From Clostridia bacterium (GTDB lineage Bacteria; Bacillota; Clostridia; TANB77; CAG-508), in NCBI GenBank assembly GCA_017510825.1, contig JAFWMA010000011.1:57646-121645 (forward strand): DNA of 64,000 nt. Reading direction: 5' to 3'. The notes beneath the pieces were generated by a model that searched no databases, was not told the DNA's origin, and saw only the letters and a program-made list of their open reading frames with translations. A program made the position numbers and the translations under genes. Numbering within the stretch: position 1 is the first letter of the stretch; the number at the start of each line of letters is the position of its first letter. This document shows positions 52,437-53,782 of the stretch, piece after piece.

Positions 52437-52605
52437 ACCTGAAGGCTTAAGCCATAGCTCTTCGAAGCAAAGCGAGTTAGAAATATGGTTCACCTCGGAG
52501 CTAGCAATATGAAGAATTGTTGAGAAAGCGTAGAGGCAGCGATACATAAAAAATTTTTGCTAACGCACAGGCTCTTTTTTGTGCGTATCTTATTCCCAAG
52601 ACCAC

Positions 52606-53380: not shown

Positions 53381-53446
53381 AATTGTAATTGTCCTATAAA
53401 AAGAGTGTATATGATTTTTTTTCATGTACACTCTTTTGAATGTTTT

Positions 53447-53675
53447 TGTTACAATTCATGGCCTAGTGTGATTATATATGTACCGTTTGCTCTTGTTGGT
53501 CGCGGGTACGAATGCAATTTGCCTAAATAGTAATTCGGGTTCCCCGTTCCGTCCCAAATTACTATTTGGCCGGCAAATTCATTCTAACTATAATCCGCTC
53601 CCATTCGCGCTACGCTTGGTTGCTACGCGAGCTACACTTTACATATATAATCACACTAAGCCGTGAATTGTAACA
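53447..53675. mobile_element. Complete MITE-like element with 35/36-bp terminal inverted repeats and a nested hairpin core
   Basis: Left TIR GTTACAATTCATGGCCTAGTGTGATTATATATGTA (53448-53482) against the reverse complement of 53640-53674: 33/35 identical. Inner stems GAATGCAATTTGCC/GGCAAATTCATTC and AAATAGTAATT/AATTACTATTT. The core is shared with 63732-63902. No transposase. Confidence 0.7.
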
Positions 53676-53782
53676 GATTTTAAATAAAAGGTAATAAAAT
53701 TTGCGTAATTAATAGAAAAAAAACAAATTATATGATAAAATAATAGTGAAATTAAAAATATATTAAATAAAAGGAGGTCTTT

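Follow-up and report, generated by a model that had tools for sequence, protein, structure and literature searches.

Insertion sequences (ISs) of the single-ORF, ISBst12-like group of the IS66 family are about 1.9 kb long and carry one ORF with a DDE_Tnp_IS66 domain between short terminal repeats that start with GT. The ends of IS66-family elements read GTAA. An 8-bp target duplication is a hallmark of the family (ISfinder, IS66 literature). Bacterial MITEs of DDE-type ISs, such as MITEPsy1/ISPsy2 of Pseudomonas syringae (PMC3189936), RUP/IS630-Spn1 and the Correia elements, are short, non-coding and dispersed, with terminal repeats equal to the ends of an autonomous IS, a target duplication of fixed length and a presumed mobilisation in trans. 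REP/BIME and TIRYT repeats, which go with RAYT transposases (Di Nocera et al. 2013), are G+C-rich nested intergenic palindromes, and the bridge RNAs of IS110/IS1111 and the guide RNAs of IS605-type elements are structured non-coding segments tied to a mobile element. The element described here shares each of the listed traits of the DDE-IS MITEs, and is very probably a MITE with the recognition ends of an IS66-family (ISBst12-like, single-gene) IS, a composite interior and the status of a fixed fossil. It differs from those MITEs in that only its outer 15–17 nt are IS-derived, the interior being a stack of unrelated palindromic repeats, in that its subfamilies have only their ends in common, and in that the parent IS is absent from the genome and rare in the genus, where it is intact in one of 44 species.

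The window, the whole 64,000-nt stretch of DNA analysed here, corresponds to C20:57646-121645 of a MAG of 1.43 Mb in 24 contigs (~28% G+C, estimated 83.6% complete), and the genes of the neighbourhood, which include murC, spoVG, mutL, obg and nusA, are those of a typical Firmicute. An earlier note on this DNA had described a 229-bp element with near-perfect inverted-repeat ends (33/35) and two stems nested inside. The element is real, but the element proper spans 227 bp (Table 1), the flanking T and A belonging to the target duplication. The ends (53447-53482 and 53640-53675) are 94% complementary over 36 nt, and both inner stems were found, the first pairing GAATGCAATTTGCC (53510-53523) with GGCAAATTCATTC (53572-53584, with one bulged C) and the second AAATAGTAATT (53525-53535) with AATTACTATTT (53557-53567), while the G+C-rich loop of the core hairpin occupies 53536-53556. 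At the position of the inner arm, other subfamilies carry TAAAAGTCCCAAATAGTATTTCCATA instead of CTAGTGTGATTATATATGTA. The whole 229 nt folds into one rod of -98.8 kcal/mol (shuffles -49.6 ± 4; z = -12.3; 0 of 200 shuffles as stable), the fold of the reverse strand is equally stable, and the G+C content is ~45%, compared with ~28% for the genome. No ORF with a ribosome binding site (RBS) is present, as had been noted: the only ATG frame, of 62 codons (53478-53666), lacks an RBS and is broken in other copies by an 8-nt indel. A promoter-like TTGGCC-17-TATAAT inside the element (53566-53594) was dismissed as chance, its -10 hexamer not being kept in other copies.

Table 1. Features of the element, its family and associated repeats (window positions unless a contig is named).
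Feature	Position	Strand	Basis or remark
Intrinsic terminator of the upstream 235-aa gene	53399-53437	+	MITE inserted in its T-tract
Left copy of decayed 8-bp target duplication (ATGTTTTT); also T-tract of the upstream terminator	53440-53447		5/8 match to 53675-53682
Complete MITE, short form, 227 bp (GTTAC...GTAAC)	53448-53674	+	sequence, fold, family comparison
Left IS66-type terminal inverted repeat (GTTACAATTCATGGC)	53448-53462	+	equals ends of the G024 1,952-bp IS and the G004 1,936-bp copy
Inner arm, subfamily-specific (CTAGTGTGATTATATATGTA)	53463-53482	+	pairs with 53640-53659
Core: scaffold (CTTGTTGGTCGCGGG ... CCGCTCCCA) around long nested hairpin 53510-53584	53483-53607	+	model R1
Genus-wide motif CATTCGCGCTACGCTTGGTTGCTACGCGAGC, the 8-mer CGCTACGC directly repeated	53602-53632	+	common to palindromic elements of G002, G007, G020 and G023 with other ends
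Inner-arm partner	53640-53659	-	
Right IS66-type terminal inverted repeat (GCCGTGAATTGTAAC)	53660-53674	-	family end pattern
Right copy of decayed 8-bp target duplication (AGATTTTA)	53675-53682		
Internally deleted family remnant	24596-24660	+	
Solo left end of the family, 62 nt	27946-28007	-	
Long-form copy, 343 bp in total, running past the window edge (to ~64075; C20:121720)	63733-64000	+	perfect 8-bp duplication GATTGAAT
Module B (~95 nt), copy inside the long form	63906-64000	+	insertion point exactly at the CCCA/TACT junction of the short form
Stand-alone module B	52454-52544	+	between the stop codon of a gene fragment and terminator 52563-52586
Module B copies, G000	C19:85938-86033; C19:88237-88379 / C12:37821-37999; C6:111165-111260 / C10:30857-30951; C24:77547-77638		model R2, alignments A2/A3
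Module B copies, G019	C6:11319-11495; C9:64328-64419; C12:112254-112345		model R2, alignments A2/A3
RAYT-like Y1/HUH transposase genes, intact, C-terminal HTH	G000 C14:16698-17384, C6:17716-18447, C19:58888-59649, C7:6802-7524		

The end pattern GTTACAATTCACRGC, allowing at most one mismatch, has 40 matches in the genome, on at least 12 contigs, compared with none for a control in which the pattern was reversed; the ~40 ends are conserved in their outer 15 nt, and 22 of the 44 species of the genus have the pattern. When the whole assembly was searched by BLAST with the short and the long form, copies were likewise returned from many contigs with unrelated flanks. The idea that the two long copies are no more than a local duplication, or that the inverted repeats arose by chance, is refuted by this dispersal, by the empty reversed-pattern control and by the lack of any shuffle as stable as the element, and no support for it was left after testing. 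The dispersed family that had been proposed from the window is thus real, but the count of at least five copies in 64 kb is not, as four pieces were found there, two complete and two fragmentary. Every copy examined is intergenic, as claimed; the statement that copies lie just after terminators is right for the present element and only loosely true for the others. The long-form copy at 63733 lies ~330 bp upstream of a 16S rRNA gene.

Elements with two ends range from 42 to 350 bp. Those of 42–70 bp are hardly more than two ends, and the 42-bp element consists of two ends only, within a perfect duplication (CTTTTTTT); a class of 133–189 bp also has both ends; the class of 227–240 bp is the subfamily of the present element; that of 288–343 bp is the same subfamily with an extra 95-nt module, one copy being internally deleted; and elements of 342–350 bp have a different interior. 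Inside the outer 15–17 nt, the size classes share scattered motifs only. Copies of the subfamily are 76–83% identical to the present element, a divergence of 17–24%, and in the oldest copy, on C4, the arms have decayed. The two truncated ends in the window face outward and bracket 3.4 kb with a transglutaminase-like gene, murC and spoVG. This stretch (24600-28007) was considered as an autonomous copy and rejected, as it holds these three genes and no transposase; the bracketed segment may be a past composite or the product of an inversion. Other pairs of ends lying 1–6 kb apart in the genome have housekeeping genes only between them, and no transposase. At C13:4143-4498 and C10:21834-22189 the same MITE is found in opposite orientation with identical flanks over at least 356 bp, the pair being either a larger duplicated segment or redundant contigs of the MAG.

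For 18 complete elements, comparison of the flanking 8 nt to the left with those to the right gave a mean match of 4.9 of 8 positions, versus 2.4–2.9 in four shifted controls. At least 6 of the 8 positions match in 8 of the 18 elements, and in 1 of 72 shifted-control comparisons, and three duplications are perfect (ATTATTTT, GATTGAAT and CTTTTTTT). The identical downstream protein is encoded on 24 contigs of other samples, and all assembled versions of their spacer are 100% identical. No empty site was seen among the strain contigs with the flanking genes, all of which carry the identical filled site, and a search for one in four congeners found no orthologue of the downstream M15 peptidase gene; G019 is without uvrC, and the other congeners have no elements beside uvrC and spacers too diverged to align. 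The insertion is fixed and old. Many metagenome contigs of the species (L159-L167) begin mid-palindrome, against window positions 53534-53560, so the MITEs systematically break short-read assemblies. Copy counts are therefore biased by such breaks, and resident IS copies may be hidden.

The autonomous parent that the earlier note proposed to look for was found in a congener, G024, and not in the MITE's own genome. At G024:C10:24594-26545 lies a 1,952-bp IS with two identical ends, the same 15–17 nt as in the MITE, around a single ORF of 547 aa. The ORF matches NF033517 transpos_IS66 with 186.7 bits (cut-off 180) and PF03050 DDE_Tnp_IS66 with 64.7 bits (cut-off 23.1, E = 1.2e-17), together with a weak match to zf-IS66 (19.7 bits for a cut-off of 27.3). 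The G004 copy, 1,936 bp long and with the same ends, is a pseudogene with three stop codons, and a remnant is present in G044. Beyond ~17 nt at each end the G024 IS and the MITE have nothing in common. The same ends enclose a 47% identical transposase in a Mycoplasmatota MAG, a further transposase adjoins one such end in a Blautia MAG, and many gut MAGs turned out to contain the ends when one genome per species was scanned. By chance, single matches in unrelated taxa are to be expected over the 596 Gb scanned with the 17-mer. Among annotated plasmid-borne genes, the closest relatives are labelled "IS66 family transposase", many of them from Bacillus, Geobacillus and Deinococcus, with 27% identity at most. 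The parent thus agrees with the single-ORF IS66 group in its domain, its one ORF, its length and its GT start, and its derived MITEs in their 8-bp A/T-rich duplications, while it departs from the family in its distance from the annotated transposases and in ends that read GTTAC rather than GTAA. In the MITE's own genome, neither tblastn nor the PF03050 profile found an IS66 transposase in the 83.6%-complete MAG.

A resident enzyme of another kind could be thought of as the mobiliser, making the element a REP/BIME-like or TIRYT-type repeat moved by an HUH/Y1 (RAYT-like) rather than a DDE transposase. The genome indeed contains four intact Y1_Tnp genes with a C-terminal HTH, and the scaffold motif of the element reads GCGTAGCGACCAAGCGTAGCG on the reverse strand, with two GTAG beside hairpins as in GTAG-tagged REPs. 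However, the repeats next to the four genes (e.g. GGGTCACTGGGGACGGAGCAC, GTCAAAGGGGCCGGGGCAATTTGACA and GGGGAATTTGGGGACACTTC) are unrelated to the ends and the scaffold of the MITE, HUH/Y1 transposition proceeds without the target duplication seen here at 8 bp, and the ends are those of an IS66-family IS. We therefore consider this origin very unlikely for the element, and applicable at most to its interior scaffold. The four genes were also rejected individually as mobilisers, since each is flanked by unrelated repeats and none by the repeat that it would have to move. Each RAYT-like gene is bracketed by its own G+C-rich hairpin repeats (GGGTCACTGGGGACGGAGCAC and GTCAAAGGGGCCGGGGCAATTTGACA among them), so that several REP-like systems coexist in this 1.4-Mb genome.

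A model of the core (R1, 53483-53607; 146 bits) recovered six copies in the genome and one in the sister species G019, with no match in the 42 other congeners and 0 matches in JGI metagenome contigs in two exact-pattern scans. In G019 unrelated inverted repeats (TATCACAGGTATATAAAGT) surround the core, and IS66-type ends are absent from that genome. The framing scaffold (CTTGTTGKTCGC ... CCGCTCC(C)ATTCGCGCTACGCTTGGTYGCTACGCG) is found genus-wide, in G002, G007, G020 and G023 and, in the MITE's own genome, at C4:81670 and C16:30617; the arms at these loci are different, and the long hairpin is replaced by a short one of G+C. A genus-wide palindromic family (window 53602-53632; L007, L008, L010, L012, L013, L014 and L016 at ~1500) has the form CTTGTTGTCGC, short hairpin, CTCCATTCGCGCTACGCTTGGTCGCTACGCGG, with two direct copies of CGCTACGC at a distance of 13 nt and two GTAG on the other strand; its outer A/T-rich arms vary, and no target duplication was evident around its members. 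As the scaffold occurs across the genus with other arms, and the core occurs in G019 inside unrelated repeats, the element is layered, consisting of an IS66-type shell, a subfamily-specific arm, the genus-wide scaffold and a hairpin limited to two species. Judged by these sequence comparisons, the interior is not derived from the IS and is instead a composite of other repeats. In the history that we favour, the layers were joined when palindromic repeats inserted into a minimal shell of two ends, of which the 42-bp element may be an example.

Could the element, or its core, be a functional structured RNA gene, of a guide, bridge or regulatory kind, that is merely carried inside inverted repeats? 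The fold is very stable (z = -12), the G+C content is high for so A/T-rich a genome, conservation is stronger in the core than in the surrounding arms, the core recurs in G019 inside different arms, and in the inner stem five of ten pairs have changed on both sides between the two species with pairing kept. The earlier note had gone further and suggested an RNA with a meaningful variable loop, on the observation that the loop differed completely from that of the copy at 63733. In fact an alignment of the two needs a single 8-nt indel and a few substitutions, and the C13/C10 copy has exactly the loop of the present element. Bridge RNAs have two loops that vary with target and donor, and no such pattern was found here: the loop is identical between C20a and C13, and the others differ by the 8-nt indel and point changes, so that the loops are identical or homologous across copies rather than target-specific, with no pattern of complementarity to target or donor. 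Searches of Rfam, with the window at the gathering score, the element at E up to 10 and ten related loci at E up to 1, returned only tRNAs and the start of the 16S rRNA. No recombinase had been visible in the window, and this holds more widely, with no match to PF01548 (IS110) above the family cut-off genome-wide and no such gene near any copy. The Rfam result, the lack of an IS110-type recombinase and the homology of the supposedly variable loop leave the bridge or guide RNA idea unsupported, and the element differs from the RNAs of IS110/IS1111 and IS605-type elements also in lacking an adjacent transposase and in its DDE-type ends. Against an RNA gene of any kind, both strands fold equally well, the orientation of copies relative to flanking genes is mixed (three the same, one opposite and two between divergent genes), just 2 of 44 congeners have the core and the JGI metagenome contigs none, decay has reached the arms of the oldest copy (C4), and with a terminator on one side and the next promoter-like sites on the other the element is probably little transcribed. 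We thus regard an RNA gene as highly improbable.

The ~95-nt module of the long copies, module B, has an asymmetric fold of two domains. By manual assignment it consists of a P0/P0b hairpin, followed by P1 around GGAGCA, a P2 hairpin often with a GNRA loop, and AAAGCGRA. In an alignment of 14 copies, which was fitted to the model and so favours the structure, the paired cells make up 88.7% (slid controls 30–53%), and two-sided changes are seen in 18 of 23 pairs, a level reached by 0 of 500 shuffles; the original MAFFT alignment of seven copies has eight pairs with two-sided changes, again reached by 0 of 500 shuffles. Module B has no match in Rfam, is confined to the MITE's own species, G019 and, weakly, G007, and gave a single weak partial match in a scan of IMG/VR. 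Outside the MITEs, all copies point in the same direction as the genes next to them. In the rpmC-rpsQ spacer it is flanked by a duplication of ~45 nt that includes the rpsQ RBS; the rpsN-rpsH spacer holds 1.45 tandem units and is 206 nt long in a 127-kb contig of another sample; in tRNA-Cys a 28-nt flanking duplication comprises the leader and tRNA nucleotides 1–16, and in a 128-kb scaffold of another sample module and duplication occur twice in tandem upstream of this tRNA (L195 1930-2260); in tRNA-Leu the duplication is 27 nt and exact, and G019 has an insertion at this site too, with a duplication of ~45 nt. Further copies in G019 lie upstream of mraZ and, as 1.75 units, in the rpsE-rplO spacer.

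Module B is an independent structured repeat supported by covariation, and more unusual than the MITE itself. Long target duplications of variable length (27–45 nt) in highly transcribed RNA genes are not the product of DDE or HUH enzymes, and one possibility is that module B represents a small, mobile and structured element of a new type, or something akin to a ribozyme, with highly transcribed genes as its targets. On a wider reading, of which module B is the clearest case, the interior modules as a whole might be more than debris, with the IS66-type shell as a vehicle for modules that lead a life of their own at the level of RNA or single strands, which we think unlikely. Two observations were made close to such sites. 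In the spc operon of the same species in another sample, the rplE-rpsN and rpsH-rplF spacers (L199 936-1109 and 1899-2070) are unusually long at ~170 nt and may hold further repeat insertions. On C24 of G000, ~700 nt from tRNA-Leu, an ORF on the minus strand (L186 304-804) has the N-terminus of a serine recombinase (YMRVSTEDQ); it is located 3' of this tRNA-Leu gene, which has module B at its 5' side, and may represent an integrated element.

For the MITE itself, the ends (GTTACWATTCACRGCTA, 15–17 bp) would be the recognition ends of the single-gene IS66-family (ISBst12-like) IS, bound at both sides by its 547-aa DDE transposase acting in trans. Insertion would take place at A/T-rich sites with an 8-bp stagger, the repair of which would create the 8-bp duplication, and the present copy would have landed in the T-tract of a terminator, where the cost of insertion to the host is likely to be small. 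The interior would have been drawn from the genus-wide palindromic scaffold with its CGCTACGC motif, from the long A/T-stemmed hairpin with a G+C-rich loop known only from the MITE's own species and G019, and, in the long copies, from the separate 95-nt structured module. As no IS66 transposase gene is present in the assembly, copies differ by 17–24% and the target duplication has decayed to 5/8, we regard the element as a non-autonomous, fixed and presumably neutral fossil. The earlier reading of a non-autonomous transposon is in this way supported by the conserved ends, the 8-bp duplications, the many dispersed copies and a congener's autonomous IS66-family element, whose ends are the same.

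Several points do not sit easily with a MITE of this kind. The missing transposase in an 83.6%-complete MAG means that mobilisation is not tied to a resident enzyme, the element's own duplication matches at only 5 of 8 positions, the strain contigs yielded no empty site, the four full-length IS copies seen are without a clean 8-bp duplication, and an interior of ~45% G+C has been maintained in a genome of 28% G+C. The paired changes in five of ten inner-stem pairs are, in addition, not obviously expected of a purely neutral fossil. Template switching during replication of quasi-palindromes is an established source of paired changes without selection on an RNA, and could have produced those seen here.

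The locus adds a superfamily of IS66-family-derived MITEs in uncultured, small-genome gut Clostridia, a result of modest value in itself. For annotation, it is of use that these elements break assemblies mid-palindrome and can pass for RNA genes. The wider value of the finding lies in module B, with its unusual insertion pattern, and in the catalogue of interacting repeat families in the lineage, among them a family defined by its 15–17 terminal bases only, with interiors swapped among other palindromic repeats.
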